Below, piece by piece: positions 4,293 to 62,832 of a DNA stretch of 64,000 nt (position 1 is its first letter; the number at the start of each line of letters is the position of its first letter). Origin of the DNA: Nanobdellota archaeon (GTDB lineage: Archaea > Nanobdellota > Nanobdellia > Pacearchaeales > GW2011-AR1). Location: NCBI GenBank assembly GCA_030647125.1, contig JAUSKC010000017.1:12664-76663 (forward strand). Reading direction: 5' to 3'. The position numbers and the translations under genes were made by a program. A model generated the notes under the pieces. The model saw nothing but the letters and a program-made list of their open reading frames with translations, had not been told where the DNA came from and made no database searches.

Positions 4293-5479
4293 CTCGTAAC
4301 AATTTCCAAAGCGTCGCGATGTTTTAATTTATGTTCTTTGCCCCAAGCCATCTTTGAGCGGGCGTCAATTGCTTTTATGAAATTCTTTCCGAAGTCAGTA
4401 TGCAAGTGATATGCAAAGTCCAACGCGGTTGATTCAGGAGGCAAGAGGAAACAATCAGGCAAAATATTTCCTTTTGAGTCAGCTAATTTATTTGCGCCTG
4501 CGGGGAAGATTGCAATATATTTTAACAAATCAAAAACCGCGAGATTTAAAATTTCTTGAACTCCTGTTCCTTGATAAACATCCAAAACATTTTTCTTCAT
4601 TTTTTCTAAAGCAGCTTTTTGGCCTGAACTTAAGTTCTTTTTTATTTCAAAATGATCATTTCCTGGAACGTAATCAATTAAACCTGCTTTAGCTGCTTGC
4701 CTTAATGCAAGTTCAGAATCAGTTGAACACGCGTAAATTAATTTATTAGGATAAGCGGACTCCAGCTTTGCAAGATTTGTTTTTGCATTTTCATGGTCGC
4801 ATTTGTTTGCTGCAATTATCATGGGCTTTGAAATTTCGCGAAGTGAAGAAGCAAATTTTAAAATTTGTTCGTTAGTCCATAAAGTTGGTTTTTCCGGCAA
4901 GTTTGCTGAACGCAAGACCGCTTTAACCTGTTCTTCATTAACTTTCAAACCAGAAAATTGTTTTACAACAGCATCGGAGAATTTTGCTTTTTCCATCTCG
5001 GCCTTTCGGGCGAAACCGCGCCAGACCTTGTTTAAGATATTGTAATACCATAAATTTAATTCGTTTTCTAAAAATTTGACGTCCTCGACAGGAGAGTAAG
5101 TGCTTCCTTCAGGTAAGGGTTTTCCTTCTGCGTCGGTCATTCCAGATAAGTCAACAAGATGAATAAATACGTCTGCCTGCCTTAAATCATCTAAAAATTG
5201 ATTTCCAAGGCCCTTTCCTTCTGATGCGCCAGGAACTAAGCCAGCGACGTCCATTAAGTCAACTGGAACGAAACGCCAGTGATTTATGCAAAATCCGTGA
5301 GCGGGATTACATTGAACATTAAACTCTTTATCAATGCATTCAACTTTCACGTATCCGACGCCGTGATTTGGTTTTATTGTAGTAAAAGGATATGCCGCAA
5401 TTTCAACTTCTGCCAGCGTCGCAGCTTTGAAAAAGGTACTTTTTCCTACCGAAGGTTTTCCAACGAGACCGATTAACAT
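4289..5479 (-). CDS. YchF/OLA1-like P-loop GTPase/ATPase with C-terminal TGS-like domain
   Basis: GLVGKPSVGKSTFF Walker A, YPFTTIKPN G2 region, DVAGLV G3 and NKCD G4. Confidence 0.8.
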   Translation of the reverse strand: MLIGLVGKPSVGKSTFFKAATLAEVEIAAYPFTTIKPNHGVGYVKVECIDKEFNVQCNPAHGFCINHWRFVPVDLMDVAGLVPGASEGKGLGNQFLDDLRQADVFIHLVDLSGMTDAEGKPLPEGSTYSPVEDVKFLENELNLWYYNILNKVWRGFARKAEMEKAKFSDAVVKQFSGLKVNEEQVKAVLRSANLPEKPTLWTNEQILKFASSLREISKPMIIAANKCDHENAKTNLAKLESAYPNKLIYACSTDSELALRQAAKAGLIDYVPGNDHFEIKKNLSSGQKAALEKMKKNVLDVYQGTGVQEILNLAVFDLLKYIAIFPAGANKLADSKGNILPDCFLLPPESTALDFAYHLHTDFGKNFIKAIDARSKMAWGKEHKLKHRDALEIVTR

Positions 5480-5616: not shown

Positions 5617-5737
5617 GAGCCTATAGCTCAGCCAGGTTAGAGCACCGCTCTTATATGAACGCAGTCCTTAAGGATTGTGATCTCTTGGAGATCTCTGAGA
5701 GAGGCGGGGGTCCACAGTTCAAATCTGTGTAGGCTCA
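5617..5737 (+). tRNA. tRNA-Ile (anticodon UAU) with a 46-nt intron at the canonical 37/38 position (intron 5656-5701)
   Basis: Hand fold:
- Acceptor gagccta/taggctc.
- D arm gctc-agccaggtta-gagc.
- Anticodon stem ccgct/ggcgg, loop c-t-TAT-a.
- T arm cacag-ttcaaat-ctgtg, discriminator a.
- Two 3-nt bulges separated by a 4-bp helix (ctta / tgag) place both splice sites symmetrically (BHB-like). Confidence 0.8.
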
Positions 5738-38413: not shown

Positions 38414-40048
38414 TTAATTTTTTAAAAAACTAAAATCAATTGGCTTGTCTTGTTTATATTCTATTTGTATTCCCGCTTTTCTTAATTGTCTAACGGTATC
38501 GGCTTTTTGCAATTCGGCACCGAGATAAGACATATGAAGCCAGTCACCAACTCTTTTTTCAGCTAGCCATCTTTGTGCTTGTCTTACTGATGAAAAAGTT
38601 TCTGATTCTAAAACAGCGCTGCTTGTTGGATGAAGGTGCTCAATATAAAAATTATTCTCTTGATTAATCGAAATTGAATAATTCCCCCTAGGATCTTGAT
38701 TTAATTTACTCGCTTGATGTAGCGTATAAGTTCTATTATCTATCAAAGGAAATTCTTCTAAAGTTTTTTTAGCATTCTCTAATTGACCTCCATAAAAATG
38801 GGCAGAGCCGGAAATTGTGCTGACTGAACCCAATTCTAAAGAAAGTCCTCTTTGTTCAAAATTTGGCTGAACTCTTTCAAGAACAAGTTTTTGCAATTCT
38901 CTTATTCCTAAAATATTTGCAGGCCAGCCCTCGAACATATCATGAGTCGCAAAATAATTAATAACATGTAATTTAAAACTATCATCTGAATCGGGGCTTA
39001 TAGCCATAAAATGGGCTCCTCTTAAGCAAGGGGTCTCTGGAGCATTCATATGTCGTGCCACATTGTAGGAGGTTGCAAAGGCCTTTCCGGTATGCTCGCC
39101 GCCTTTTTTGGATAATTTTTTCACAGCATAATCAATTTGATTTATTACTTGTCCATCAGCGCGATGAGCAAATAGCTCTTCACCATAACAATAAGCGGAA
39201 CCTTCCAAAGGGTCGCCGTGAGTAAATTGATGAACATATTTTGCAACGGACTTTTCAAATTCAGGAATTCGCCCAAAAATTTCAGGTTTAACCAAAGTTT
39301 TGTAGTCCTCATTTCCTGTAACAATTGCAAAAGTTCCTACAGTATCTTTTTTTGAGTCCTCTCCTTCCAAAATTTTTACTTTTCCAAACCGGATTATATT
39401 ATCTAAAATGTCCAACCAGACCTCTTCAACAGTCACTCCGCGGATCATATATCCCATGTCTTCAGAAGGAAATGTCTCAGCAGTTTCTTTTCCAAGAGGA
39501 TATCTCATTCCAAAGTCCCTCCAAGGATCTTTAGAAAGTGAATGTGAAATCTCCCTTATTGCTGTTGCGGCGCTTTCATAGTCACCTTCGCGAACATTTT
39601 CTCTTAAATCGTGCACTTTAATATTTTTTCTAAGGGCGTCAAACTCTTGCAAAGGGATTTCTTCAGGCAGAATCAAGACCTTTTTATCTATTCCTTTTAT
39701 AGTATAGTCATCGTTAAACCCGTTGTTAAAAAAATTATTTAACATTGATCCTGTATTTGTCGGGTCTCTTCCCCAAGTTACTAATCTTCTTATATTTGGA
39801 TTTGCAAGAAGTTCTCGCAAAATTAAATTAACACCTCTAGGAGAAAAACACTGGCCTATTGCAGAATATTGTGAAACGTCAAGACGTTTTGCTAAGGGCT
39901 GCCTTTCAGTCCATAAAGTTGTTATTGCAAGAGGAGAATCAACATTTCCAACACTAACTTCATTTCTATGATAAACAGGCCAAACGGAAACAAGCTCGTC
40001 CAAAGATAATTTTTCTGGATTTGGAATATCAAACTCTTTTTCAGACAT
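38414..40048 (-). CDS. ThyA-like (thymidylate synthase fold) domain flanked by an MtrA-like N-domain and a DUF4346-like C-terminal segment
   Basis: - N-terminal part: VGNVDSPLAITTLW...LANPNIRRLVTWGRD, which is MtrA-like as I recall that family.
- Middle part: YCYGEELF...INQIDYAVKKL...ETPCLRGAHF...THDMFEGWPANI, which parallels the ThyA YGxxl / dQi / PCl / RSxDxxxGxPxN motifs.
- C-terminal part: HMSYLGAELQKAD...YKQDKP. Confidence 0.5.
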   Translation of the reverse strand: MSEKEFDIPNPEKLSLDELVSVWPVYHRNEVSVGNVDSPLAITTLWTERQPLAKRLDVSQYSAIGQCFSPRGVNLILRELLANPNIRRLVTWGRDPTNTGSMLNNFFNNGFNDDYTIKGIDKKVLILPEEIPLQEFDALRKNIKVHDLRENVREGDYESAATAIREISHSLSKDPWRDFGMRYPLGKETAETFPSEDMGYMIRGVTVEEVWLDILDNIIRFGKVKILEGEDSKKDTVGTFAIVTGNEDYKTLVKPEIFGRIPEFEKSVAKYVHQFTHGDPLEGSAYCYGEELFAHRADGQVINQIDYAVKKLSKKGGEHTGKAFATSYNVARHMNAPETPCLRGAHFMAISPDSDDSFKLHVINYFATHDMFEGWPANILGIRELQKLVLERVQPNFEQRGLSLELGSVSTISGSAHFYGGQLENAKKTLEEFPLIDNRTYTLHQASKLNQDPRGNYSISINQENNFYIEHLHPTSSAVLESETFSSVRQAQRWLAEKRVGDWLHMSYLGAELQKADTVRQLRKAGIQIEYKQDKPIDFSFLKN

Positions 40049-44943: not shown

Positions 44944-47900
44944 ATGTCATTAAAATCAAGACCAGTAAAGAATAAAATTGGAGCAATAAGATTCAGCTTA
45001 GTTAATCCTGAACAAATTAAAAAGTTATCAGTTGCAAAGATTGTGACGCCAGAACTTTATGATATAGACGGGTATCCTGTCGACGGAGGATTAATGGATT
45101 TGAGGATGGGTGTTGTTGATCCTGGATTGAGATGTCGAACAGATGGAGCAGTTATAAAAGAATGTCCTGGATATCCTGGAAGCATTGACTTGGCAAGATC
45201 AGTAATACATTTGAAATATGTTCCGCTAATTGAAATGGGTTTGAGATGTTTCTGCCATGATTGTGGAAAATTAATGTTAAGTGAAAAAGACCTTGCTAAA
45301 TTCAGCCCCGCAAACAGAGCCAAAAAAGCAAAGGACTCAAAGAAATGTCCTTACTGCACCGCAAACCAAGAAAAAATCAAATTAGACAAACCAACAAGTT
45401 TCTATATAGGCAAAAAAAGAATTTTCCCTACGGAAATAAGAGAAATGCTTGTTAAAATTCCTGACGAGGATCTGAGAAAAATAGGAGTAAACCCTGAATC
45501 ATCAAGGCCCGAATGGTCTGTTTTAACGACGTTGTTGGTTCCTGCACCTACAATAAGACCATCAATTATTCTTGAAACAGGAGAAAGAAGTGAAGATGAT
45601 ATAACACATAAATTATCAGATATTATACGGGCTAATCAACGACTTTGGGAAAATTTGAATGCAGGAGCTCCTGAAGTTATAATTGAAGATTTATGGGACT
45701 TGCTTCAGTATCACATTACAACATTCTTTGACAATTCGGTTGCTCGTGTTCCTCCAGCACGTCACAGAAGCGGACAGCCATTAAAAACAATCACCGAAAG
45801 AATAAAGGGTAAAGAAGGAAGAATTAGAAAGAACTTGGCAGGTAAAAGAGTAAATTACTCTGCACGAACAGTTGTTTCACCAGATCCAAGAATTGAAATT
45901 AATGAAGTTGGTGTTCCTTATGAAATTGCAAAGATTGTTACCGTCGCTGAAGCGGTGACTGATTTAAACATTCACAAACTGAAAGAACTGGTTAATAAAG
46001 GAGAAGAATATCCCGGAGCAAATTATATTATAAGACCTGATGGAAAAAGAAAGAAAATAACCAGTGAATTAAAAGAAGAAATAATCAATGAACTTGTTAC
46101 TGGATATAAAGTTGAAAGACATTTGCAAGATGGGGACATAGTTTTATTCAATCGTCACCCTTCGCTGCACAAAGGAAGTTTAATGGCGCACTACGTAAAA
46201 GTTCTTCCTTCCAGAACTTTTAGATTGCATCCTGCAGTAACATTCCCTTACAACGCGGACTTCGACGGGGATGAAATGAATATTCACTCCCCACAGACGG
46301 AAGAAGCGCGCGCTGAAGCAAAGATTTTATTGGATGTAAAGAAAAATTTAATTTCCCCTAAGAACAATTCAAATTTAATCGGAACAAAAGCTGATTCTAT
46401 CACAGGAAATTATTTGCTTGGATTAAACGAGCTTGATAAGGCCTATGCTAATCAATTATTTTTCAAATCTGGAATTGACCTTAAAGTTTCCAAAAAAAGT
46501 ATTTCAGGATTGGAGATTTTCTCACACATAATTCCAAAAGGAACTAATTTTGAAAATGATTCTGTAAAGATCAAAGACGGGAAAATCATCTCCGGGCATA
46601 TTGACGGAAGCACATTTGGAGAAGAAGATGGAGAGTTGGTTAAAGAATTAGACAAAGCATTTGGAAGAACACAGACACTTGAGACATTAAAAAATATCTT
46701 TACTTTAGGTACAAATTACTTAACTGATAAAGGAATTACAATTTCTGTTGAAGATTTGGATTTGGATGAAAGTATTATTGAAAAAGGAAAGGAAATAATT
46801 GCACGCGCTGAGAAAAAAGTTGAAGAGTTAATTGCAAGTTATCACGACGGCACTTTAGAAATTATCCCAGGAAAAACATTTGAAGAAACAAGAGAATTGA
46901 AAATTCTTCAGACATTGAATGAAGTAAGAACAAAAATTGGAGAAGTTGTAAAGAAAGAATTCCCTGAAGATAATCCTGTTAGTAACATGATAAAATCGGG
47001 AGGGGGCGGAAATATCTTAAATATTACACAGATGGCTTCGTGCGTCGGGCAACAAGCATTTGCCGGCGGAAGAGTTGATATTGGTTATGTTGACAGAACA
47101 CTTTCATTTTTTAACAAAGGAGATTTATCCCCTCGTGCAAGAGGATTCATTCACAGTCCTTTCATAAAGGGTCTGCGTCCCGATGAATTTTTCTTCCAGG
47201 CAATTACAGGAAGAGATTCACTTATGGATACAGCGTTGAGAACTCCAAAGTCAGGATATCTTTACAGAAGATTGGCAAATGCGCTGCAGGATATAAGGGT
47301 AGAATACGATGGAACGGTAAGAGACAGTAATAATAATATAATTCAATTTATATATGGAGATGATGGAAAAGACGTTTCAAGGTTACATTTGAAAGAAAGC
47401 AAAGTTGATGCAGGCGAGGCAGTTGGAATTGTAACTGCGCAATCGTTCGGAGAATCATCGACGCAAATGGTCCTTAATACATTCCACATGGCAGGAGTTG
47501 CAGAAATGCAGGTTACTACAGGCCTTCCAAGAATTATAGAAATCTTTGATGCTCGTAAAAAACCTTCATCGCCAAAAATGGAAATTTACCTAGATAAGGA
47601 TTCAAACAATGAAAAAGATGCAAGAACCATCGCTGAAAAAATAAAAGAAGTAAAGCTTAAGGAAATTGCGTCGCATGTCAATTTGGACTTTGGCAATAAG
47701 ATTATTGAAATTGTTCTTGATAAAGAAGGAATGAGAAGAACACACACTAATTTGAAAAAAGTCGCAGAAAAATTAAAAGATCTTGGATACAAAGTCAACG
47801 AAAGAAGCGAGTCCATTGCTATTAACGCAAAAGATTCAACATTCAAGGAGATTTACAAAGTAAAGGAAAAACTTAAGGAAACAATTATTTCCGGACTAAA

Positions 47901-48447
47901 AGGAATCGAACAAATTTTAATTGTCAAGAGAGACAAGGACTTTGTAATTATAACTTTAGGAACTAATTTGAAAAAGATAATTGAGCTTAAAGAAGTCAAC
48001 ATTGAAAGGACAATTACAAATGATTTATATGAACTGGCAGAAGTTTTCGGAATTGAAGCCGCGCGACAATTGATAATAAATGAAATTGATCATACCTTAA
48101 GAAGTCAGGGTTTAGATATTGACATGAGACATTTGAAATTAATTGCAGACACTATGACAACTGCAGGCCTTGTTAAGGGAGTTACAAGAATGGGGATCAT
48201 TGCGCAGAAAGCATCGATACTTGCCAGAGCAACTTTTGAGACGCCAGTAAAACAATTCGTCAACGCCACCATAAAAGGTAACAGGGACTACTTAACAAGC
48301 GTCGTGGAGAATATTATACTAAATCAACCAATTCCCGTCGGAACAGGACTTCCAGGATTAGCAGTTCAAGTTGTTGGTTCTCTAGCAAAGAAAGATTCCG
48401 AAAAGAAAAAAGCTGATTCAAAGATTGTTGAGCAAGTTAATAAATAG
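44944..48447 (+). CDS. rpoA: DNA-directed RNA polymerase subunit A, with A' and A'' parts in one ORF
   Basis: 1167-aa ORF with these elements in one frame:
- NADFDGDEMN active site.
- Bridge helix (GRDSLMDTALRTPKSGYLYRRL).
- About 17 residues after YGDDG, the trigger-loop region that normally opens A'' (GEAVGIVTAQSFGESSTQMVLNTFHMAGV). Confidence 0.9.
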   Translation: MSLKSRPVKNKIGAIRFSLVNPEQIKKLSVAKIVTPELYDIDGYPVDGGLMDLRMGVVDPGLRCRTDGAVIKECPGYPGSIDLARSVIHLKYVPLIEMGLRCFCHDCGKLMLSEKDLAKFSPANRAKKAKDSKKCPYCTANQEKIKLDKPTSFYIGKKRIFPTEIREMLVKIPDEDLRKIGVNPESSRPEWSVLTTLLVPAPTIRPSIILETGERSEDDITHKLSDIIRANQRLWENLNAGAPEVIIEDLWDLLQYHITTFFDNSVARVPPARHRSGQPLKTITERIKGKEGRIRKNLAGKRVNYSARTVVSPDPRIEINEVGVPYEIAKIVTVAEAVTDLNIHKLKELVNKGEEYPGANYIIRPDGKRKKITSELKEEIINELVTGYKVERHLQDGDIVLFNRHPSLHKGSLMAHYVKVLPSRTFRLHPAVTFPYNADFDGDEMNIHSPQTEEARAEAKILLDVKKNLISPKNNSNLIGTKADSITGNYLLGLNELDKAYANQLFFKSGIDLKVSKKSISGLEIFSHIIPKGTNFENDSVKIKDGKIISGHIDGSTFGEEDGELVKELDKAFGRTQTLETLKNIFTLGTNYLTDKGITISVEDLDLDESIIEKGKEIIARAEKKVEELIASYHDGTLEIIPGKTFEETRELKILQTLNEVRTKIGEVVKKEFPEDNPVSNMIKSGGGGNILNITQMASCVGQQAFAGGRVDIGYVDRTLSFFNKGDLSPRARGFIHSPFIKGLRPDEFFFQAITGRDSLMDTALRTPKSGYLYRRLANALQDIRVEYDGTVRDSNNNIIQFIYGDDGKDVSRLHLKESKVDAGEAVGIVTAQSFGESSTQMVLNTFHMAGVAEMQVTTGLPRIIEIFDARKKPSSPKMEIYLDKDSNNEKDARTIAEKIKEVKLKEIASHVNLDFGNKIIEIVLDKEGMRRTHTNLKKVAEKLKDLGYKVNERSESIAINAKDSTFKEIYKVKEKLKETIISGLKGIEQILIVKRDKDFVIITLGTNLKKIIELKEVNIERTITNDLYELAEVFGIEAARQLIINEIDHTLRSQGLDIDMRHLKLIADTMTTAGLVKGVTRMGIIAQKASILARATFETPVKQFVNATIKGNRDYLTSVVENIILNQPIPVGTGLPGLAVQVVGSLAKKDSEKKKADSKIVEQVNK

Positions 48448-50425: not shown

Positions 50426-50683
50426 ATGAAATCAATAGATAAAATTCTTTGTCTTTTTCCTTTTAACCCTCAACTAGAATATAAAACGGCTGATGTAATT
50501 TCTGGGGGAATAGACGCATTCAAAATGATTGGAATGATAACCATAGGATTAGGATTATTTGGAAAAGAAGAGTTGCAAGGAATGAATACTATTTTAACAG
50601 GAATGGGAGTTTATGGAGCTTCTGTTATAATAGATTATGTTGCCCAGAGAATATCGGATAAAAAATTCTATTCTGATCATTAA
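50426..50683 (+). CDS. small membrane protein, hypothetical
   Basis: 85 aa with two Gly-rich hydrophobic helices. Confidence 0.4.
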   Translation: MKSIDKILCLFPFNPQLEYKTADVISGGIDAFKMIGMITIGLGLFGKEELQGMNTILTGMGVYGASVIIDYVAQRISDKKFYSDH

Positions 50684-50733
50684 ATATAATTCTTTAATAA
50701 TCATCTTTTTAAATACATTAAATATTTATTTTT

Positions 50734-51036
50734 ATGGATAAACGAAAGTTATGGTATGAAATAGTTCCTGATGGAGAATATGTTGTTTCTAGTGATAGAA
50801 TTGAAAGAACATTAAAATTCCCTCAAAAAGTTGAACTTGATTCTGTAAAATATGAAATGATAAAGGTTATTACACTCAAAAGTGGAACAAGGTATATTAG
50901 CGAATTTTACGCCAATAATGGATCTTGGAAGAAAATTGATGCAAGAAATGGAAGAGGAGATGACTTACAGGATATTCATAATGATGCTGTTAATTTCTTA
51001 AAAGGCAATTATGTCAATCAGCACGCAAATCATTAA
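50734..51036 (+). CDS. hypothetical protein
   Basis: 100-aa ORF. No motif. Confidence 0.4.
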   Translation: MDKRKLWYEIVPDGEYVVSSDRIERTLKFPQKVELDSVKYEMIKVITLKSGTRYISEFYANNGSWKKIDARNGRGDDLQDIHNDAVNFLKGNYVNQHANH

Positions 51037-51080
51037 TTTAAGATATAAATAATTAAAAACTGTTTTTTTGTTTTCCATTT

Positions 51081-51458
51081 ATGGGGGTAAATTTTCCGAC
51101 AAATTCTACTGAGTTAAACTTATCTGAAGATGGCGACGGAGCTTTTGACAGAATTGGTTTCTCTTTAGACATGAAAGTTTATACATGGGGGTGGAAATAT
51201 TTTATAAGAAAAGATGGAAAATTCAAGCTTACGGAAAAGGTCTTCAAAAAATTTGAAGGAGAGGAAATAACAGGCAGAAATTTAAATTCACTTCTTGCAG
51301 ACATTTTTAAAGAAAGATTTGGAGTTCGTTATCAAACTCACAGGTATGATGATAAAATAAAACGAGATATTCTTTGCACTTATCCTTATCAAACAGAAAG
51401 CTGGCATTTTGAAGGACATGTTGACTTGCTGCCCTTTGCTCCGTATTATAAGATATAA
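51081..51458 (+). CDS. hypothetical protein
   Basis: 125-aa ORF. No motif. Confidence 0.4.
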   Translation: MGVNFPTNSTELNLSEDGDGAFDRIGFSLDMKVYTWGWKYFIRKDGKFKLTEKVFKKFEGEEITGRNLNSLLADIFKERFGVRYQTHRYDDKIKRDILCTYPYQTESWHFEGHVDLLPFAPYYKI

Positions 51459-51617
51459 TAAATAAAACAAGAATATTTTTAAACTCTTTTTATCTGTAGT
51501 TCGAATGTTAAATAAAAGAATTAACTCTAACTGGAATATAACAGCTAGATGTAATTCTAAATCATATTTTAGCCCAGTCAAACATTTTGGCCCGGCTATA
51601 TAATAATTCTGATAAAA

Positions 51618-52019
51618 ATGGCCGAGGCAACAACTTACAAAGATAATAGGAATGATGTTTCTTATAGTTCATCTGGTTTGGAAAAAGAAGTTTTAGTTCA
51701 TCTTAGACAATATTTGGACTTTATGGAAAGAATATCCTACGAACCTTCTAGAATAAAAATTGATTTAAATCATATCTCAAGAAAGATTGCTCCTAAATTA
51801 AACAATAAATATTCAAACATTTTTGCACAAGGAGAAAGTTTCTCGGAAATGATTAGGGGAATAATGAGAAGAAAAATGAAGGACTTTAATTATGAAGAAA
51901 ATGGCAGGCCTTATACCTTCCAATTAACAGATGTTGGGATAGAAAAGGTATCTGAAAGGGACTGGATAAATTATGCAAGAAAACAATTAAAAGAATTAGG
52001 CTACAAACCGAATTATTAA
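51618..52019 (+). CDS. hypothetical protein
   Basis: 133-aa ORF. No motif. Confidence 0.4.
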   Translation: MAEATTYKDNRNDVSYSSSGLEKEVLVHLRQYLDFMERISYEPSRIKIDLNHISRKIAPKLNNKYSNIFAQGESFSEMIRGIMRRKMKDFNYEENGRPYTFQLTDVGIEKVSERDWINYARKQLKELGYKPNY

Positions 52020-52101: not shown

Positions 52102-54294
52102 ATGGCAGAAAAAGAATCACAATTTCACAAGATACAAAGATTAAGTAAGGACCAAAAGCAAATAAGAAATATAGCGACGAGCGCGCACATTCACCACGGA
52201 AAGACCGCTTTGACAGACAACTTATTGGCTGCTTCAGGATATATGGCTGTAAAAAATGCTGGAAACCTTGAAGAGGGAATGGCAACCTGGCAGCACTCTG
52301 ACGAGCAAGAACGACTTATGACTGTCGACTCTGCAAACGTTTCTATGGTCCATGATTATCACAAAGAAGAATTTTTAATTAATTTGATTGACACGCCCGG
52401 ACACGTTGATTTCGGCGGAAATGTTACAAGGGCTATGAGAGCCATCGACGGAACTGTTGTTCTTGTCTGCGCAGTTGAAGGAATGATGCCTCAGACAGAA
52501 ACGGTAATCAAGCAAGCACTTAGAGAAAGAGTAAAGCCGGTTTTGTTCATTAATAAAGTTGACCGTTTGATTAAGGAATTGAAACTGACTCCTGAAAAAA
52601 TGCAGGAAAGATTTATAAAAATTTATCAGGACTTCAACAAACTTGTCAAGAGCGTTGCTGAAAAAGAATACGGAACAAAATGGGCTGTTGATATTTCCGA
52701 TGGAAGCGTTGCTTTCGGTTCAGCTAGAGAAAATTGGGCATTATCAGTCCCGTTCATGAAGAAAAAAGGAATTTCTTTCAAAGATATTTTTAATGCTTAC
52801 ACAGCTATGAGTGATGAAGAAAGAAAAGATTGGTTCTGGAAGAATGCGCCATTGTATGAAGTTCTTTTAGATATGGTTGTAAAACATTTGCCTAATCCTT
52901 TGGAAGCGCAAAAATACAGAATTCCAAAAATATGGAAAGGTGATTTGGATTCAGAATTTGGAAAGGACTTGTTAAGTTGTAATCCCAACGGCAAACTTGG
53001 TTTTGTTATTACAAGAATTGTAATTGATCCGCGCTCGGGAAAAGAAATTTCTGCTGGTCGTTTATTCTCAGGAACGTTAAAGCCGGGAATGGATGTTTAT
53101 TTGAATTTAGCAAAACAGAAAAGAAGAATTCAGCAAGTTTTAATTTACAATGGAGTTAAGCCGGAACTACTTGATGAAATTGGCCCGGGAAATGTTCTTG
53201 CAATTTCTGGAGTCAATGCAGAAGCTGGCGAGACAATAACCTCAGAGCCTGAAACTGCATTTGAAGAATTGAAACATATTTTTGAGCCGGTTATTACTAA
53301 AGCAATTGAAGTCAAAAAAACTGCTGACCTTCCTAAATTAGTTGAAATTTTGAAACAAGTTGCTAAAGAAGATCCATCTATAAAAGTTGAAATTAATGAA
53401 CAGACAGGAGAGTCACTTATTTCTGGAATGGGGGAACTACACCTTGAAATTATTGAAAACAGAATTAAGACAGAAAAAAATCTTGAAGTTAAAACTTCTG
53501 CGCCTATAATTGTTTACAGAGAAACAGTTGCTAAGACGTCCGGCTCAAAAGAAGGAAGGTCTCCAAACAAACACAATAGTTTCTTTATTAAAGTTGAACC
53601 ATTGGAAGATGAAATTTTCAATGCAATACAAAATGGAGATTTGCCTGAAGGAAGAGTAAAGAAAAAAAATGAAGAACTATCTAAAAAATTATATGAAATG
53701 GGATGGAGTGGAGATGAAGTAAGAGACGTCCGCGACATTTTCAAAGGAAGCATGTTTATAGATGAGACACGAGGGGAAGTTCATATGGGGGAAGTTATTG
53801 AAATGATTCTTGACGCGTTCGAAATGGTAATAAAATCAGGACCTTTGGCTCACGAGCCGTGCACAAAAATGAAAGTTACTTTAACGGATATTAAACTTCA
53901 CGAGGATGCGATTCATAGAGGTCCGGCGCAAGTTTATCCTGCTGTTAGAGAAGCAATCACTGAAGCAATGAAAGACGCAAATGCAACTTTGTTAGAACCA
54001 TTGCAAATTCATGTTATCGACGTTCCTGGAGATTTCATGGGAGCTGTAACTAAATTAGTTGGCGGCAAAAGAGGACAAATGCTTGACATGACGCAAGAAG
54101 GAATGAACACTGAAATCACTATGAAGATTCCAGTTGCAGAAATGATTGGGTGGAGTTCGGACTTGCGTTCAGCGACGGAAGGGCGCGGGACGTCTTCATT
54201 AAAAGACCAGTTGTTTGAAAAGATACCAACTTCAATACAAGCGGATATAATTAAGAAGATAAGAGATCGGAAGGGATTGGCTGAAAATCAATAA
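52102..54294 (+). CDS. fusA: translation elongation factor aEF-2
   Basis: AHIHHGKT G1, DTPGHVDF G3, NKVDR G4, and the diphthamide region LHEDAIHRGPAQ. Confidence 0.95.
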   Translation: MAEKESQFHKIQRLSKDQKQIRNIATSAHIHHGKTALTDNLLAASGYMAVKNAGNLEEGMATWQHSDEQERLMTVDSANVSMVHDYHKEEFLINLIDTPGHVDFGGNVTRAMRAIDGTVVLVCAVEGMMPQTETVIKQALRERVKPVLFINKVDRLIKELKLTPEKMQERFIKIYQDFNKLVKSVAEKEYGTKWAVDISDGSVAFGSARENWALSVPFMKKKGISFKDIFNAYTAMSDEERKDWFWKNAPLYEVLLDMVVKHLPNPLEAQKYRIPKIWKGDLDSEFGKDLLSCNPNGKLGFVITRIVIDPRSGKEISAGRLFSGTLKPGMDVYLNLAKQKRRIQQVLIYNGVKPELLDEIGPGNVLAISGVNAEAGETITSEPETAFEELKHIFEPVITKAIEVKKTADLPKLVEILKQVAKEDPSIKVEINEQTGESLISGMGELHLEIIENRIKTEKNLEVKTSAPIIVYRETVAKTSGSKEGRSPNKHNSFFIKVEPLEDEIFNAIQNGDLPEGRVKKKNEELSKKLYEMGWSGDEVRDVRDIFKGSMFIDETRGEVHMGEVIEMILDAFEMVIKSGPLAHEPCTKMKVTLTDIKLHEDAIHRGPAQVYPAVREAITEAMKDANATLLEPLQIHVIDVPGDFMGAVTKLVGGKRGQMLDMTQEGMNTEITMKIPVAEMIGWSSDLRSATEGRGTSSLKDQLFEKIPTSIQADIIKKIRDRKGLAENQ

Positions 54295-54319
54295 TTTTTT
54301 GAATATAAAATAATATTTA

Positions 54320-54943
54320 TTACATATCTCTAAAAACTTCAACTAAATTTTTCTTCCGAGAGGGATGCTTCAATTTTTCTAATGCACTATTTACTAATTG
54401 CCCAACCCTTGCTCCACCAACACCCAGATACTTTCCTATTTCTTCAAAAGTATATTCTCTGTCTTGATCTATACCAAAGTGCATCATAACTGCTGTTCTT
54501 CTTCTTTCATCTAATTCATCTAAAACATTTATAATAGCTGAGTGTATTTCTTCTCCATAAATCTTGTTTGGGGCTTCCGGTTCAACTTGAGGCAATAATC
54601 TTTGGCTTGTGTCAGATAATGAAATAAGATTACTTTCTGGAATCTCTCTTTCTGTAATATACTTACCTTTTACTTTAATTTGTTTTAAACTTTCTGGAAA
54701 AACATCTTCTTCTAAAATAAAATAACCAGCATTTCTATAAGCAAAACAAATTTTCTCTTGCATCCTTTTGCTAGGATATCGGTGTAATAATTCAAGTTGT
54801 CCTAAAACGTAAGGAGCAGTTCCAATTAATTCTGCTGCCTGTCTTTGATTTAGTCCTAATGCTTCTCTTGCTTTGACTAACTCAGCATTTTTTACTCTTA
54901 TTTCTAATCTTACATTAAAGTTTTTATCTTCATAAGTTTCCAT
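54320..54943 (-). CDS. two-HTH protein: XRE-like N-terminal HTH plus C-terminal sigma-70 region 4-like domain
   Basis: The N-terminus has LGLNQRQAAELIGTAPYVLGQLE. The C-terminus has LDERRRTAVMMHFGIDQDREYTFEEIGKYLGVGGARVGQLVNSALEKLKHPSR, which closely parallels the RpoD region 4.2 pattern (...tLEEvG..fgVTRERIRQIE.KALRKLRHPSR). Confidence 0.65.
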   Translation of the reverse strand: METYEDKNFNVRLEIRVKNAELVKAREALGLNQRQAAELIGTAPYVLGQLELLHRYPSKRMQEKICFAYRNAGYFILEEDVFPESLKQIKVKGKYITEREIPESNLISLSDTSQRLLPQVEPEAPNKIYGEEIHSAIINVLDELDERRRTAVMMHFGIDQDREYTFEEIGKYLGVGGARVGQLVNSALEKLKHPSRKKNLVEVFRDM

Positions 54944-55029
54944 ATTTTTACCTGAATAAGAATGGTTTATAAATCTTAAGTTTGGTGGAGAATCAATAAT
55001 TATTTAATCTCATTTTCTTATCTTATTTT

Positions 55030-55632
55030 ATGATACGAAATAAGAAATTAATTTTATCATTAATGTCTTTTATTGCGTTTTTGTTTATATTAATTATAGT
55101 TGTTAATGGAACGCCCTCGATTGATTATTCAGTAAGTTCTGGGATCAATAAATTACGTAATCCTATAATGGATGGCTTTTTTATCTTTCTTGGAAACTTC
55201 TCGAGAGAAATTATGATTGGGTTTGCATTGATTGCTGCATTAATTTTATATAATGGAAAAAGGAAGAAAGAATCTTGGATTTTGCTTTTCAGTTTAATTT
55301 TGGGTTATGTTTTTGAGCAAGCAATAAAATTTTCTGTTCAGCGCGTCCGTCCATTAATGCAACTTATCCAGGAAATTGATTATAGTTTCCCAAGCGGACA
55401 TGCAATATTCTCTATAATTTTATTTTCAATGCTGATTTACTTTTTTAAAGACGAAATAAAAAATAAGACGACACGTTTAATCTTCATCTTAATTAATATA
55501 TTCTTAATTTTACTAATCGGCTTCAGCAGAATTTATTTGAACGTTCACTCGTTTACCGACGTGATTGGGGGATATGCACTTGGTTTCGCAGTTGCTAATT
55601 TTGTATTATACTTGGCGGAATTAAGAAATTAA
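55030..55632 (+). CDS. PAP2-family lipid phosphatase
   Basis: KFSVQRVRP, SFPSGHA and SRIYLNVHSFTDVIGG, the three PAP2 motifs, in a multi-TM protein. Confidence 0.8.
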   Translation: MIRNKKLILSLMSFIAFLFILIIVVNGTPSIDYSVSSGINKLRNPIMDGFFIFLGNFSREIMIGFALIAALILYNGKRKKESWILLFSLILGYVFEQAIKFSVQRVRPLMQLIQEIDYSFPSGHAIFSIILFSMLIYFFKDEIKNKTTRLIFILINIFLILLIGFSRIYLNVHSFTDVIGGYALGFAVANFVLYLAELRN

Positions 55633-55704: not shown

Positions 55705-56988
55705 ATGGCAAAAACAAAACCAGCAATGAATGTAGTTTTCGTCGGGCACGTTGACGCAGGAAAGTCAACTACAGTTGGACAACTTATGTTCCAAACCGGC
55801 GCTGTTTCTGTACAAGAAATGGAAAAATTAAAGGCCGAAGCTCAAAAGCATGGTAAAGTTGGTTTTGAATTCGCTTACGTTATGGACAAAATCAAAGAGG
55901 AAAGAGAAAGAGGAGTTACAATTGACCTTGCATACAAAAAAATTATAACACAAAAATACGAAATCACAATAATTGACGCTCCAGGACACAGGGACTTTGT
56001 AAAGAACATGATTACTGGTGCTTCACAAGCCGACGCTGCTTTCTTAGTTATTGCTGCACCTTCAGGAGTTCAGCCACAAACAAAAGAACATTTATGGTTG
56101 TTAAGAACAATGGGTGTTTCAAACATTTCAGTTATAATTAACAAGATGGATGAAATTAGTTATGACGAAGCAAAATTCAATAAAGTTAAAGAGGACGTTT
56201 CTGCACTTTTGAAAGTTGTTGGAGTTAAACTTGAAACAGTTCAATTTATCGCTGCTTCAGGTTTGAAAGGGGATAATGTTGCTAAAAAATCTACTAATAT
56301 GTCTTGGTACAAAGGACCAACAATTTTAGAACAATTTGATAATTTCCCAGCTCCGGAAAAACCTACAAACTTGCCTTTGAGAATGCCTGTTCAAGACGTT
56401 TATGAAATTACAGGTATTGGAACTGTTCCAGTAGGAAAAATTGAAACAGGAGTTATGAAACCAGGACAAAAAATTATAGTACTTCCAGGAAGAACTGGAA
56501 AAGGTGTTGCAGGGGAAATAAAAACAGTTGAAGCTCATCATGAAACTTTACCTCAAGCAGAAGCTGGAGATAATGTTGGAGTAAACATAAGAGGAATTGG
56601 AAAGAAAGATATTGCTCGTGGAGACGTAATCTGCGACGCTGCTTCCCCTATACCAATTGTTGCTGAATTCATTGCTCAAATCGCAGTAATAAATCACCCA
56701 ACAGTTTTAGCTAAAGGATATACACCAGTATTCCACGTTCACACAGCTCAAGTTCCGTGCCAATTTGTTGAATTAATTGAACAAATTGATCCTAAATCTG
56801 GTCAAGTTATGAAGAAAAATCCTGACTTTTTGAAAAACGGAGATGTTGCTAAAGTAAGAATAAGACCTCAAGGAAACTTATGCTTGGAAACATTAAAAGA
56901 CAATCCACACATGGCAAGATTCGCTGTAAGAGATGCTGGCGCAACAGTTGCTGCTGGAATGTGTGTTGAGATTGTTGAGAAAAAATAG
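55705..56988 (+). CDS. tuf: translation elongation factor aEF-1alpha
   Basis: GHVDAGKST, DAPGHRDF and NKMD motifs with a typical length. Confidence 0.95.
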   Translation: MAKTKPAMNVVFVGHVDAGKSTTVGQLMFQTGAVSVQEMEKLKAEAQKHGKVGFEFAYVMDKIKEERERGVTIDLAYKKIITQKYEITIIDAPGHRDFVKNMITGASQADAAFLVIAAPSGVQPQTKEHLWLLRTMGVSNISVIINKMDEISYDEAKFNKVKEDVSALLKVVGVKLETVQFIAASGLKGDNVAKKSTNMSWYKGPTILEQFDNFPAPEKPTNLPLRMPVQDVYEITGIGTVPVGKIETGVMKPGQKIIVLPGRTGKGVAGEIKTVEAHHETLPQAEAGDNVGVNIRGIGKKDIARGDVICDAASPIPIVAEFIAQIAVINHPTVLAKGYTPVFHVHTAQVPCQFVELIEQIDPKSGQVMKKNPDFLKNGDVAKVRIRPQGNLCLETLKDNPHMARFAVRDAGATVAAGMCVEIVEKK

Positions 56989-60642: not shown

Positions 60643-61431
60643 ATGTCATCGTTATGGAAATTCGGTCCTTCTGGACTTGGACCGATTAAAACTGCGCTGG
60701 ATACTTTAGAGGAGTATAATAGATTAGGATTGAAAACATGCGAGATTGCTTTTACTTATTCTGTCTATATAAAAAATAAAGGGGACGCAGAGAAAATTGG
60801 CAAGAGGGCTGAAGAGCTTGGAATTGAATTAAGAATTCACGGGCCGTACTGGGTTAATCTTAACTCTGAAGAACCCCAAAAAATTGAAAATAGCAAGAAC
60901 CTAATTTTAAGATGCCTTGAAGTTGGGACTTGGCTTGGAGCGAAGATTGTGGTTTTTCATCCAGGATTTTATGGCAAAAGGAGTAAAGAAGAAACTTATG
61001 AAAAGATAAAAAAAGGCATTTTGGAAATTGAAAACGAAAGGAAGAAAAGGGGTTACACTACAGAAATGGCGCCTGAAACAATGGGAAAAATAAACGTTTT
61101 TGGAAGCACTGGAGAAATAAGAAAACTTGTGGAAGATACGGGTTGCAATTTTTGTATTGACTTCGCGCATATTCTTGCCCGGGACAAGGATTACAGATTT
61201 GAAGAAGTGCTTAAACTTTTTGAAAAATTTGAAAAATTATATTTGCATTTTTCAGGAATTGTCTATGGAGAAAAAGGAGAGAAGCATCATAGACGAACGG
61301 AAGAAGATGAATGGAAGAAATTCCTGAAAGCTCTGCCAAAAAACAAGGAAATAAGCATCGTAAATGAGTCCCCTACGCCTGTTGAAGATGCTATTGAGGG
61401 TTTAAGTTTATCGAGGATAAATGGAATATAA
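60643..61431 (+). CDS. AP endonuclease family 2 / xylose-isomerase-like TIM-barrel protein (endonuclease IV-like)
   Basis: IHGPYWVNL, VVFHPGFY, CIDFAHI and LHFSG resemble the endonuclease IV metal-ligand positions. Confidence 0.5.
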   Translation: MSSLWKFGPSGLGPIKTALDTLEEYNRLGLKTCEIAFTYSVYIKNKGDAEKIGKRAEELGIELRIHGPYWVNLNSEEPQKIENSKNLILRCLEVGTWLGAKIVVFHPGFYGKRSKEETYEKIKKGILEIENERKKRGYTTEMAPETMGKINVFGSTGEIRKLVEDTGCNFCIDFAHILARDKDYRFEEVLKLFEKFEKLYLHFSGIVYGEKGEKHHRRTEEDEWKKFLKALPKNKEISIVNESPTPVEDAIEGLSLSRINGI

Positions 61432-61572
61432 CTTGCTGTTCCGACAGCTAGTGACAGGTTACCTACTAAATAATTAAACATTATGTTGTCACCACAAAGT
61501 TTATAAAAGAAATTCGGGTGGTAATTCTACCAAAAAACAATGTTTTTTGGACAACTAAATTAAATAAAAAAC

Positions 61573-62832
61573 ATGAAAAAAATGGAAACAAAGAAACTTT
61601 TAGTTTCTTTTTTGGCTATCGCAAGTTTGTTAATTGTAGCAACTGCATTTGTAAGTGCTAACGAACTAGCTAGTGGTGTTTCAACCTTCATTGACAATGC
61701 TGGAGTAGATAATACTGGTATTGTTGCTGGAGATACAATGACTATTCAGGTTATATTCACATCTGATGTGAATGCATCTGATGTCACTGTTGAAGTTGAG
61801 TTAGAAGGCGATAAAGCTGACGCTCAAGTTGAGACAAGATATTTCGATGTTGAAAGCGGCCATAGATACACAAAGTTCTTGAACTTGAAAGTTCCTTACG
61901 AACTTAAAGATCAACTTAGTGATGACGCAACTTTGACTGTTAAAATATCTGGAGACGGCTTCGAAACTGAACAAGTTTACGATGTTAGAATCCAAAGACA
62001 ACCATATGAAGCTAGTGTTATGTCTGTATCTGCAGATCAAACAATAAGCGCTGGGGCAACTTTCCCTGTCGATATTGTTTTGAAAAACACAGGTTACAAT
62101 AACCTTGATGATGTTTATGTTACTGTTATGGTTCCAGAATTAGGACTTCAAAAATCAGCATATTTCGGAGATATTGTCTCTGTTGAATGTGATGATCAAT
62201 TTAGTTCTGTAGAGAACTATAATGTTGACGTTGACAGAAAATGTAATGAAGATGACGATGATAGTGTTGCAGGCAGAATCTTTTTGAATATGCCATACGA
62301 TGCTAAAGCCGGAGCTTATACATTGCAAGTTAAGGTTAAAAATGACGACACAACTACAAGCGCAAGCACACAATTTAATGTGCAAAACAATGTCGCTAAT
62401 GAAGTTGCTGTTGACAGCTCACAAAAATCTGTAGCTGAAGACGAGAACGCTGAGTTCAATTTGTTACTTGTTAACCCAACTAACCAAGTTAAGGTTTACA
62501 GAATAGTAACAGAATCAACAAGCGGTCTTTCTACAAGTACGGACACTTCCGTTGTTGCTGTTCCAGCAGGATCAAGCAAAAACGTTAGAATAATTGCTAG
62601 CGCACAAGATTCAGGAGAATATCAATTCACTACGAGTGTATTCTCTGGAGAGCAATTAGTTGAAAGCGTTCCTATGACTGTAAAAGTCAGTGGAAGTTCA
62701 GCTACAAGCAATCCTCTTGTAATCTTGACAGTAATATTGGCAATAATTTTTGTTGTATTGCTTATTGTATTAATTGTCTTGATGTCTAGAAAGCCAGAAA
62801 GAAGCGAAGAATTTGGAGAAAGTTACTACTAA
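61573..62832 (+). CDS. cell-surface (S-layer-like) protein with signal peptide and C-terminal membrane anchor
   Basis: N-terminal signal-like helix, beta-rich Thr/Ser/Val/Asp composition, and a C-terminal TM helix followed by a short charged tail. Confidence 0.55.
   Translation: MKKMETKKLLVSFLAIASLLIVATAFVSANELASGVSTFIDNAGVDNTGIVAGDTMTIQVIFTSDVNASDVTVEVELEGDKADAQVETRYFDVESGHRYTKFLNLKVPYELKDQLSDDATLTVKISGDGFETEQVYDVRIQRQPYEASVMSVSADQTISAGATFPVDIVLKNTGYNNLDDVYVTVMVPELGLQKSAYFGDIVSVECDDQFSSVENYNVDVDRKCNEDDDDSVAGRIFLNMPYDAKAGAYTLQVKVKNDDTTTSASTQFNVQNNVANEVAVDSSQKSVAEDENAEFNLLLVNPTNQVKVYRIVTESTSGLSTSTDTSVVAVPAGSSKNVRIIASAQDSGEYQFTTSVFSGEQLVESVPMTVKVSGSSATSNPLVILTVILAIIFVVLLIVLIVLMSRKPERSEEFGESYY

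Follow-up and report, generated by a model that had tools for sequence, protein, structure and literature searches.

A DPANN-associated protein family that fuses an XRE-type helix-turn-helix to sigma-70 region 4

A 207-residue protein encoded in a 64,000-nucleotide stretch of contig JAUSKC010000017.1 from a Nanobdellota archaeon (the window, hereafter) joins an N-terminal XRE-type helix-turn-helix (HTH) module to a C-terminal sigma-70 region 4 domain. It is one of a large and uncharacterised family of XRE-sigma-4 fusions, associated with DPANN, which has been known only coarsely and under the misleading name 'sigma factor'. The protein is probably a stand-alone cytoplasmic two-HTH transcription regulator working on the archaeal promoters of its host, a DPANN archaeon of the Pacearchaeota/Woesearchaeota type. 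Its translation includes the sequence quoted in a first-pass annotation of the same DNA (...DERRRTAVMMHFGIDQDREYTFEEIGKYLGVGGARVGQLVNSALEKLKHPSRKKNLVEVFRDM), and the parts of the gene are as follows.

54320..54943, minus strand: fusion gene for XRE-HTH, linker and sigma-70 region 4; a complete open reading frame (ORF) with an ATG start, 207 amino acids (aa)
54638..54922, minus strand: N-terminal module, aa 8-102; a five-helix XRE/lambda-repressor-type HTH between two predicted beta-strands
54560..54637, minus strand: linker, aa 103-128, with the conserved motif L(I/L)SLS.....LLP; predicted local distance difference test (pLDDT) ~71-84
54329..54559, minus strand: sigma-70 region 4 domain, aa 129-205 (regions 4.1 and 4.2 and the tail KLKHPSRKKNL), from Pfam, hhalign, PDB and Foldseek comparisons
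54368..54418, minus strand: recognition helix of region 4.2, aa 176-192, GGARVGQLVNSALEKLK, from a column-by-column comparison with SigA and the family

Profile comparisons assigned the C-terminus to region 4 of a sigma-70 protein of the primary (RpoD/SigA) type, well above chance. Pfam Sigma70_r4 (PF04545) matched aa 140-193 over its whole 50-position model (E=3.5e-11, 42.9 bits against a cut-off of 24.1), the r4_2 model of the extracytoplasmic function (ECF) type reached 21.2 bits on the same protein, under its own cut-off, and the top NCBIfam matches were RpoD models. The top matches among PDB sequences were region 4 of SigA/RpoD as well, for example 4g6d_A (E=1.2e-11, ungapped, aa 137-202). 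A profile of 65 family members aligned by hhalign to Salmonella RpoD (99.1% probability, 77 columns) covered RpoD residues 538-614, which are region 4 only, and Foldseek placed the C-terminal domain of a structure model on the SigA region 4/beta-flap chimera 7kug_D over 70 columns with a root-mean-square deviation of 0.9 A. The first-pass annotation had read the C-terminus as tracking region 4.2 position by position and had named a generic LuxR-type HTH as the alternative. The primary-sigma assignment is borne out through to the HPSR tail, with the exception of three specificity positions that are changed (Gly177, Ala178 and Gly181). The LuxR/GerE identity was rejected, GerE being absent from the Pfam matches of this protein and weak in 3/65 family members, with Sigma70_r4 in 65/65. 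LuxR/GerE regulators share a tetra-helical HTH fold class with sigma-4, but the profiles discriminate clearly between the two.

The remainder of a sigma factor is missing, as had been noted earlier by eye. Region 2, which provides core binding, -10 recognition and melting, gave no Sigma70_r2 match in the 207-aa protein or in any of the 65 family members, by Pfam or by hhalign. Sigma70_r3 was found neither in the 207-aa protein by Pfam nor among the 25 most-hit of the 67 Pfam families in the scan of the 65 members. Because regions 2 and 3 are missing, the family cannot consist of sigma factors, and by its domain content this protein is not one. The relation to RpoD/SigA is thus confined to regions 4.1 and 4.2, including the LxKL(R/K)HPSR tail, which are homologous to aa 129-205. 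The fusion protein differs in having no regions 1.1-3, and so no core binding or -10 recognition, in carrying the fused XRE module and in residing in a host with an archaeal RNA polymerase (RNAP).

The N-terminus, already called an XRE-type HTH on first inspection, was assigned to the XRE/lambda-repressor type, and the assignment is solid at family level. The single sequence gave a borderline HTH_3 match (aa 24-61, E=1.2e-3, 19.3 bits where the cut-off is 23); of the 65 family members 63 matched, with a best E of 1.4e-11. The N-domain profile retrieved lambda-repressor-like/Xre structures from the PDB at E=1e-6 to 5e-5. An AlphaFold2 model built from the 65-sequence alignment (mean pLDDT 88.6; predicted template modelling score, pTM, 0.50) contained a five-helix domain of the HTH_3 type with helices at aa 20-28, 33-40, 44-51, 59-71 and 78-88, thus spanning aa 20-88, and strands at aa 8-15 and 95-102, followed by a sigma-4 domain of four helices within aa 124-205. 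The pLDDT was 93-98 over aa 21-90 and 91-98 in the sigma-4 domain. The module holds the near-invariant family motifs RLExRxKNAxLxxARE and EEDVFPE, and all near-invariant residues of the family lie within it (K18, N19, L22, A25, R26, L29, A37, G41, E51, Y56, P57, F82, P83). It shares with the XRE and Cro-cI regulators its matches to the HTH_3, HTH_31 and HTH_19 models and a location at divergent promoters that is typical of the class. It differs from them in that sigma-4 replaces the usual C-terminal oligomerisation, sensor or peptidase domain, and in its flanking beta-strands and EEDVFPE motif, which are specific to the fusion family.

We also considered whether the N-domain could be sigma region 3, which would make this a truncated sigma-3/sigma-4 protein. 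Foldseek aligned ~185-195 columns of the model collinearly with primary sigmas in holoenzyme structures, and the model was also collinear with a 200-aa viral 'sigma-70 region 3 domain protein'. This candidate was rejected at the sequence level: the hhalign match to RpoD fell in region 4 only, the N-domain profile matched only XRE structures, and Sigma70_r3 was not among the 25 most-hit families listed. The likeness of the N-domain to sigma-3 is best described as topological.

We examined the residues of the recognition helix that would face a -35 element, assigning contact positions through the ungapped SigA alignment and using E. coli sigma-70 numbering. R584, E585 and R588 are the -35 specificity determinants known from genetics and from the Taq sigma-4/-35 structure (PMC2613000). 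R584, E585, R586, R588 and Q589 read G, A, R, G and Q in this protein, so that two of the five are kept and all three specificity determinants are lost, their equivalents being Gly177, Ala178 and Gly181. Across the family R584 is kept in 25 of 65 members (and replaced by K in 9 more), E585 in 34, R586 in 51, R588 in 39 and Q589 in 49; at least four of the five contact residues are present in 30/65 members and two or fewer in 28/65. Since three of its five contact residues are lost, TTGACA reading is not expected of this protein, whereas the roughly half of the family that keeps the -35-reading residues probably reads a TTGACA-like half-site. The earlier description as a '-35-box-reading module' would accordingly fit part of the family and, judged by these residues, not this protein.

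The range within the family is wide. One member, P0015, is almost RpoD-like in this segment (VTIERIRQIEAKALRKLRHPFRA), its sigma-4 domain being 70-80% identical to bacterial primary sigma (RpoD) fragments, and members reach 65% identity to SigA region 4 over 66 positions. The corresponding segment is GGARVGQ in this protein and GRSRVGQ, TGRGAQQ and CHGRVNQ in its three closest orthologues, each different at the specificity positions. With these positions Gly/Ala or variable in this protein and its closest relatives, its sigma-4 half-site would be different or weaker. The net charge of the sigma-4.2 segment (+4, against a family mean of +4.5) is compatible with DNA binding.

The same variability could mean that XRE is the sole DNA reader and that sigma-4 has become, in this subclade, a protein-protein module serving dimerisation or contact with a partner such as TBP, TFB, RNAP or a ligand-sensing protein. 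The pattern of conservation points in this direction. Identity among the four closest orthologues is 67-77% in the N-domain, 52-59% in the 4.2 HTH and 36-43% in the tail, the specificity positions that are Gly/Ala here differ in each orthologue, and family-wide the N-domain is again more conserved than sigma-4 (mean pairwise identity 44% vs 33%). However, the sigma-4 domain is well folded in the model (pLDDT 91-98), R586, Q589 and a net positive charge are retained, no conserved partner gene was found at the loci compared, and variable recognition positions would equally fit a diversifying DNA specificity. We regard a purely protein-binding sigma-4 as possible but doubtful, and favour a regulator in which both modules contact DNA.

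The size of the family emerged from an exhaustive search. A word-indexed search returned 8 relatives only; HMMER with the profile of these returned 150 representatives at E<=1e-30, ~125 of which are proteins of 190-280 aa matched end to end (XRE, linker and sigma-4). As the representatives are clusters at 50% identity, the family comprises at least ~125 clusters. This protein, which is itself one seed of the family profile, matches it end to end through RLExRxKNA...ARE, the XRE HTH, EEDVFPE, the L.SLS...LLP linker and sigma-4. Its full-length identity is 63-69% to the family proteins P0002-P0004 and 30-47% to 60 further members. A profile of the N-terminal 125 residues alone found 58 proteins; PF04545 was present in 55, and two of the remaining three were fragments. 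The N-domain is thus hardly ever separate from sigma-4, which makes the fusion an obligate and old one.

The named genomes in the family are metagenome-assembled genomes (MAGs) of Pacearchaeota, Woesearchaeota and Nanoarchaeota. A restrictive motif scan of species-representative genomes, run with a 12-sequence subset so that its 3 loci are a lower bound, confirmed the family in one MAG of Nanoarchaeota and two of Woesearchaeota. Among named orthologues the closest, P0004 (63% identity), comes from a Candidatus Pacearchaeota MAG under the NCBI name 'sigma factor-like helix-turn-helix DNA-binding protein', and several members bear the IMG label 'RNA polymerase sigma factor (sigma-70 family)'. 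Castelle et al. (2021) described sigma-70-classified families in DPANN as 'particularly prevalent in Woesearchaeota' and asked how such sigma factors are controlled without anti-sigma factors (PMC8204110). The XRE-sigma-4 family is probably what they saw. The first-pass annotation had called a sigma-4 module out of place in archaea; this does not hold, since DPANN families classified as sigma-70 (PMC8204110) and the Tfx/EnfR regulators (PMC10570040) were already known. It had also pointed to related archaea and viruses as possible carriers of the same fusion. The survey yielded the ~125 clusters, among which the named genomes are Pacearchaeota, Woesearchaeota and Nanoarchaeota MAGs; two scans of IMG/VR and a tblastn search of GenBank phages gave sigma-4-only matches and no full-length viral relative.

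Two sets of relatives stand apart. P0008, a full-length homologue with 35% identity, is encoded at 4768-5370 of Logan contig SRR29078262_3254 (locus L009), a GC-rich phage-like contig on which its neighbours are a DUF5906 primase, a phrog_16 helicase and an M15 endolysin; viruses or mobile elements, which may be bacterial, thus seem to carry the XRE-sigma-4 architecture too. The other set consists of tandem proteins of 600-1700 aa with 7-15 sigma-70 region 4 units (P0009, P0010, P0014, P0029, P0042, P0056, P0076, P0084, P0091, P0104 and others). P0009 (6001-8817 of locus L016, a 990-kb ENA contig) has 938 aa, a Sigma70_r4 match at E=1e-75, at least 9 units of ~80 aa and no region 2; in each unit REEKIIRLRYGLD...L..LK.P is kept and the recognition helix is variable. 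P0042 combines one region 2 with many region 4 units.

The host is archaeal, as had been recognised on first reading. The window, with a G+C content of 34%, encodes an Rpb1/Rpb2-type RNAP and an S12-S7-EF-2-EF-1alpha translation cluster (EF, elongation factor), carries a tRNA of intron-bearing length and has TATA-box promoters; no bacterial beta or beta' subunit was seen in it. Around the fusion gene we found a promoter of this kind and a repeated sequence.

54966..54979, minus strand: archaeal promoter read from the sequence, with the TATA box TTTATAAA (54966-54973) and a purine-rich AAGA ahead of it; putative function
54982..55011, plus strand: direct repeat of 24 nt, upstream copy at 54982-55005; an imperfect palindrome at 54988-55011 (GAGAATCAATAATTATTTAATCTC) overlaps it
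54277..54300, plus strand: downstream copy of the 24-nt direct repeat, made up of the last five codons and stop of EF-2 and 6 nt

With 22 nt between the end of the TATA box and the ATG, the mRNA would be leaderless or nearly so and its initiation TBP/TFB-dependent. The same TATA box lies 21-23 nt upstream of the homologues in L001, L007, L003, L008 and L020, making six loci with this gene's own. A conserved operator upstream of the orthologues was also sought and rejected, the TATA box alone being common to their upstream regions.

The promoter bears on the idea that the protein is a sigma-like initiation or selectivity factor whose sigma-4 domain docks RNAP at -35-like promoters, in a hybrid bacterial/archaeal route. 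Such a role would agree with the primary-sigma type of region 4 down to its HPSR tail, with the 70-80% identity of some members to bacterial RpoD region 4 and with the ~185-195 columns that Foldseek found collinear with primary sigmas in holoenzyme, and the control of such 'sigma factors' was a question raised by Castelle et al. (2021). It is nevertheless improbable. The defining module for core binding and -10 melting, region 2, is in no member, the N-domain is XRE by sequence and not sigma-3, and the RNAP genes 6 kb from the fusion gene specify an archaeal, Rpb1/Rpb2-type enzyme. The fusion gene is itself under a TATA promoter, TTGACA is not enriched, and R584, E585 and R588 are missing from this protein.

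The surroundings of the gene were compared with those of its homologues.

52102..54294, plus strand: EF-2
55030..55632, plus strand: PAP2 gene, between the fusion gene and EF-1alpha
55705..56988, plus strand: aEF-1alpha

The gene order runs from Rpb2-type and Rpb1-type RNAP subunits through a NusA-like KH protein, S12, S7, four small ORFs and EF-2 to the fusion gene on the opposite strand, and continues with the PAP2 phosphatase, aEF-1alpha, a TPR protein and a Toprim primase. There is no paralogue of the fusion gene within the window. The first-pass annotation had inferred insertion or acquisition from the opposite-strand position within the translation-factor cluster; the position is as described, but a recent event does not follow, since the gene holds the same slot in two genomes and belongs to an archaeal family of many contexts. 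It stands antiparallel in the EF-2/EF-1alpha slot of the Pacearchaeota contig L001 (63% identical) and of L007 (65%), where the other genes of the gap differ. As two related genomes share the placement, it is old, and any transfer of the sigma-4 module would be ancient and not a recent event at this locus. In other loci an AP-endonuclease-2 gene adjoins the homologue (L003-L006), the homologue is divergent from an archaeal L3...L19e ribosomal operon (L020), it lies near L10e and phosphoenolpyruvate synthase in a Woesearchaeota MAG (L010), or it adjoins pyruvate:ferredoxin oxidoreductase (L013). A conserved partner gene was rejected, as no neighbour is kept across contexts and L001 and L003 have unrelated small ORFs downstream; the lack of a conserved neighbour is as expected of a solo regulator.

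The direct repeat raises another origin, that of a cI-like repressor from a virus or integrated mobile element recently inserted at the EF-2 3' end. The two copies (20/24 identical, spacing 705 nt) bracket the fusion gene and its TATA box, the EF-2 copy reading LAENQ and stop where the upstream copy would read LVENQ and stop, and a 20/24 match was reached in 1/200 shuffles. The opposite strand within a conserved cluster, the phage-like contig of P0008 and a phage-type integrase 4.5 kb from the homologue in L018 would also suit an element. We consider a recent insertion quite unlikely, because the location is shared by two genomes in which the orthologue has 63-65% identity, the locus showed neither an integrase nor other element genes nor a break in composition, the IMG/VR and GenBank phage searches held no full-length relative, and L001 and L007, the orthologous loci, lack the repeat. 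The repeat may have been left by the original insertion, may be an operator or may have arisen by chance. The palindrome at 54988-55011, a candidate operator, lies between the divergent promoters of the fusion gene and the PAP2 gene.

Targeting of a bacterial partner's RNAP had also been put forward, in which case the protein would be an effector or decoy that titrates the beta-flap or the -35 elements of bacterial RNAP. The bacterial provenance of sigma-4 and the symbiotic lifestyle proposed for DPANN (PMC8204110) speak for this, and nothing else does. No signal peptide or membrane segment that would permit export was evident, judged by eye without a predictor. This protein has lost the -35 contact residues, its gene has an archaeal leaderless promoter and sits in a chromosomal location that is syntenic and housekeeping-like, and the conserved N-terminal XRE domain would be superfluous for a decoy. 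We found the proposal unsupported and think it extremely unlikely.

Known proteins offer partial parallels to a two-HTH regulator. POU-domain factors of eukaryotes connect a lambda-repressor-like subdomain to a second HTH subdomain by a flexible linker and read a bipartite site; the analogy is functional only, with no homology in the second domain. The archaeal regulators Tfx/EnfR (TON_1525, MTH0916) have been characterised as binding promoter DNA through an HTH that is sigma-70 region 4 by Pfam and by structure (PMC10570040), and so show by precedent that an HTH of the sigma-4 type can be a plain operator-binding domain in an archaeon. Tfx differs from the fusion protein in that its HTH is N-terminal and followed by an acidic alpha+beta TFX_C domain, in its X-shaped dimer and in having no XRE; TFX_C had no match in this protein or in the 65-member family scan, and the domain order is reversed. 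The region 4 of the fusion protein, with its 4.1 segment and HPSR tail, is far closer to primary sigma than is the Tfx/EnfR HTH. In bacteria, GafA, the activator of the Rhodobacter gene transfer agent, has an N-terminal HTH and a C-terminal sigma-like domain, binds promoters directly and is not a canonical sigma (PMC6363796), which illustrates that an HTH and a sigma-like domain can make an activator that is no sigma. We liken GafA to the fusion protein by description only; it is bacterial, with a DnaA-type (DNA-binding-domain-like) N-domain, an ECF RpoE-like sigma part and a bacterial RNAP.

In the two-HTH regulator that we favour, the fusion gene would be transcribed from its own archaeal TATA promoter, and its product would carry two independent HTH modules, XRE and a sigma-4 descended from a bacterial primary sigma, on a flexible linker of ~25 residues. 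Both modules would contact DNA and read a bipartite operator, and the regulator would repress or activate TBP/TFB-dependent promoters, as do other regulators of bacterial type, to which most archaeal regulators belong. The sigma-4 helix probably reads a TTGACA-like half-site in about half of the family. In this protein that half-site would be different or weaker, and most of the specificity probably lies with the XRE module, which is highly conserved.

Several observations weigh against this reading. No operator is conserved among the orthologous upstream regions, and the palindrome at 54988-55011 is not kept. The 70-80% RpoD identity of some members is more than DNA binding at one operator should need and hints at a further constraint, such as a protein partner. 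TTGACA was tried as a regulon signal and rejected: the window holds 44 copies against a Markov expectation of 48, and none of the related loci is clearly enriched, a weak excess at one Woesearchaeota locus (18 vs 9.6) being not significant once multiple tests are taken into account. How the XRE and sigma-4 domains are oriented to each other is not confidently predicted (pTM 0.50). A search for expression data found the sequence in groundwater metagenome DNA runs only. The domain identities, family size, obligate fusion, archaeal host, conserved synteny, promoter type and loss of contact residues are thus observed, and that both modules bind DNA, that the protein is a regulator and what its targets are is deduced.

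Other features of the window were recorded alongside. The largest RNAP subunit (44944-48447, plus strand) is a single ORF of 1167 aa with Rpb1 domains 1-5, and its L001 orthologue (15108 onward) has 1162 aa. In archaea this subunit is mostly split into A' and A''; here it appears fused and shortened. Four small ORFs without a Pfam match (85, 100, 125 and 133 aa; 50426-52019, plus strand) break the conserved S7/EF-2 junction in a stretch with a G+C content of 28-31%, under that of its neighbours, and L001 too has unannotated small ORFs at S12/S7 and S7/EF-2. A tRNA match in Rfam at 5617-5737 (plus strand; 53 bits), not reported by ARAGORN, is 121 nt long, which suggests an intron-containing archaeal tRNA. 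At 38414-40048 (minus strand) lies a gene for a 544-aa protein with weak MtrA-like and PterinBD-DUF4346 matches, unexpected in a DPANN-type genome that is presumably without methanogenesis. About 6 kb from the fusion gene, 60643-62832 (plus strand) holds an AP_endonuc_2 gene and one for a ~420-aa protein with a FixG_C-like Ig domain. Genes of the same Pfam families (AP_endonuc_2, FixG_C-like) and of similar lengths stand beside or near the homologue P0006 on the groundwater contigs L003-L006, which suggests, by Pfam family and length alone, a loosely conserved neighbourhood.

There is a slim chance that XRE-sigma-4 proteins are more than local repressors, with a near-canonical region 4 reading -35-like hexamers genome-wide, touching the transcription machinery, or both. 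If so, a sigma-derived layer of promoter selectivity would be grafted onto TBP/TFB initiation in Woesearchaeota, Pacearchaeota and Nanoarchaeota, and the 70-80% RpoD identity together with the tandem sigma-4 proteins, if these are archaeal, would amount to a wider, undescribed use of sigma-4. The IMG and PGAP annotations and one comparative paper list DPANN 'sigma-70 family sigma factors'. If these are the same family, they are really obligate fusions of XRE and sigma-4, and the question of 'bacterial sigma factors in archaea' would be reframed. The family is a natural experiment on sigma region 4 apart from bacterial RNAP, in which about half of the members keep the -35-reading residues and about half, this protein included, do not. 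It offers a case in which archaea may have put a promoter-recognition module of bacteria to new use for the ordinary reading of operators, and in tiny genomes with few recognisable regulators such a conserved family may be a useful handle on gene regulation.

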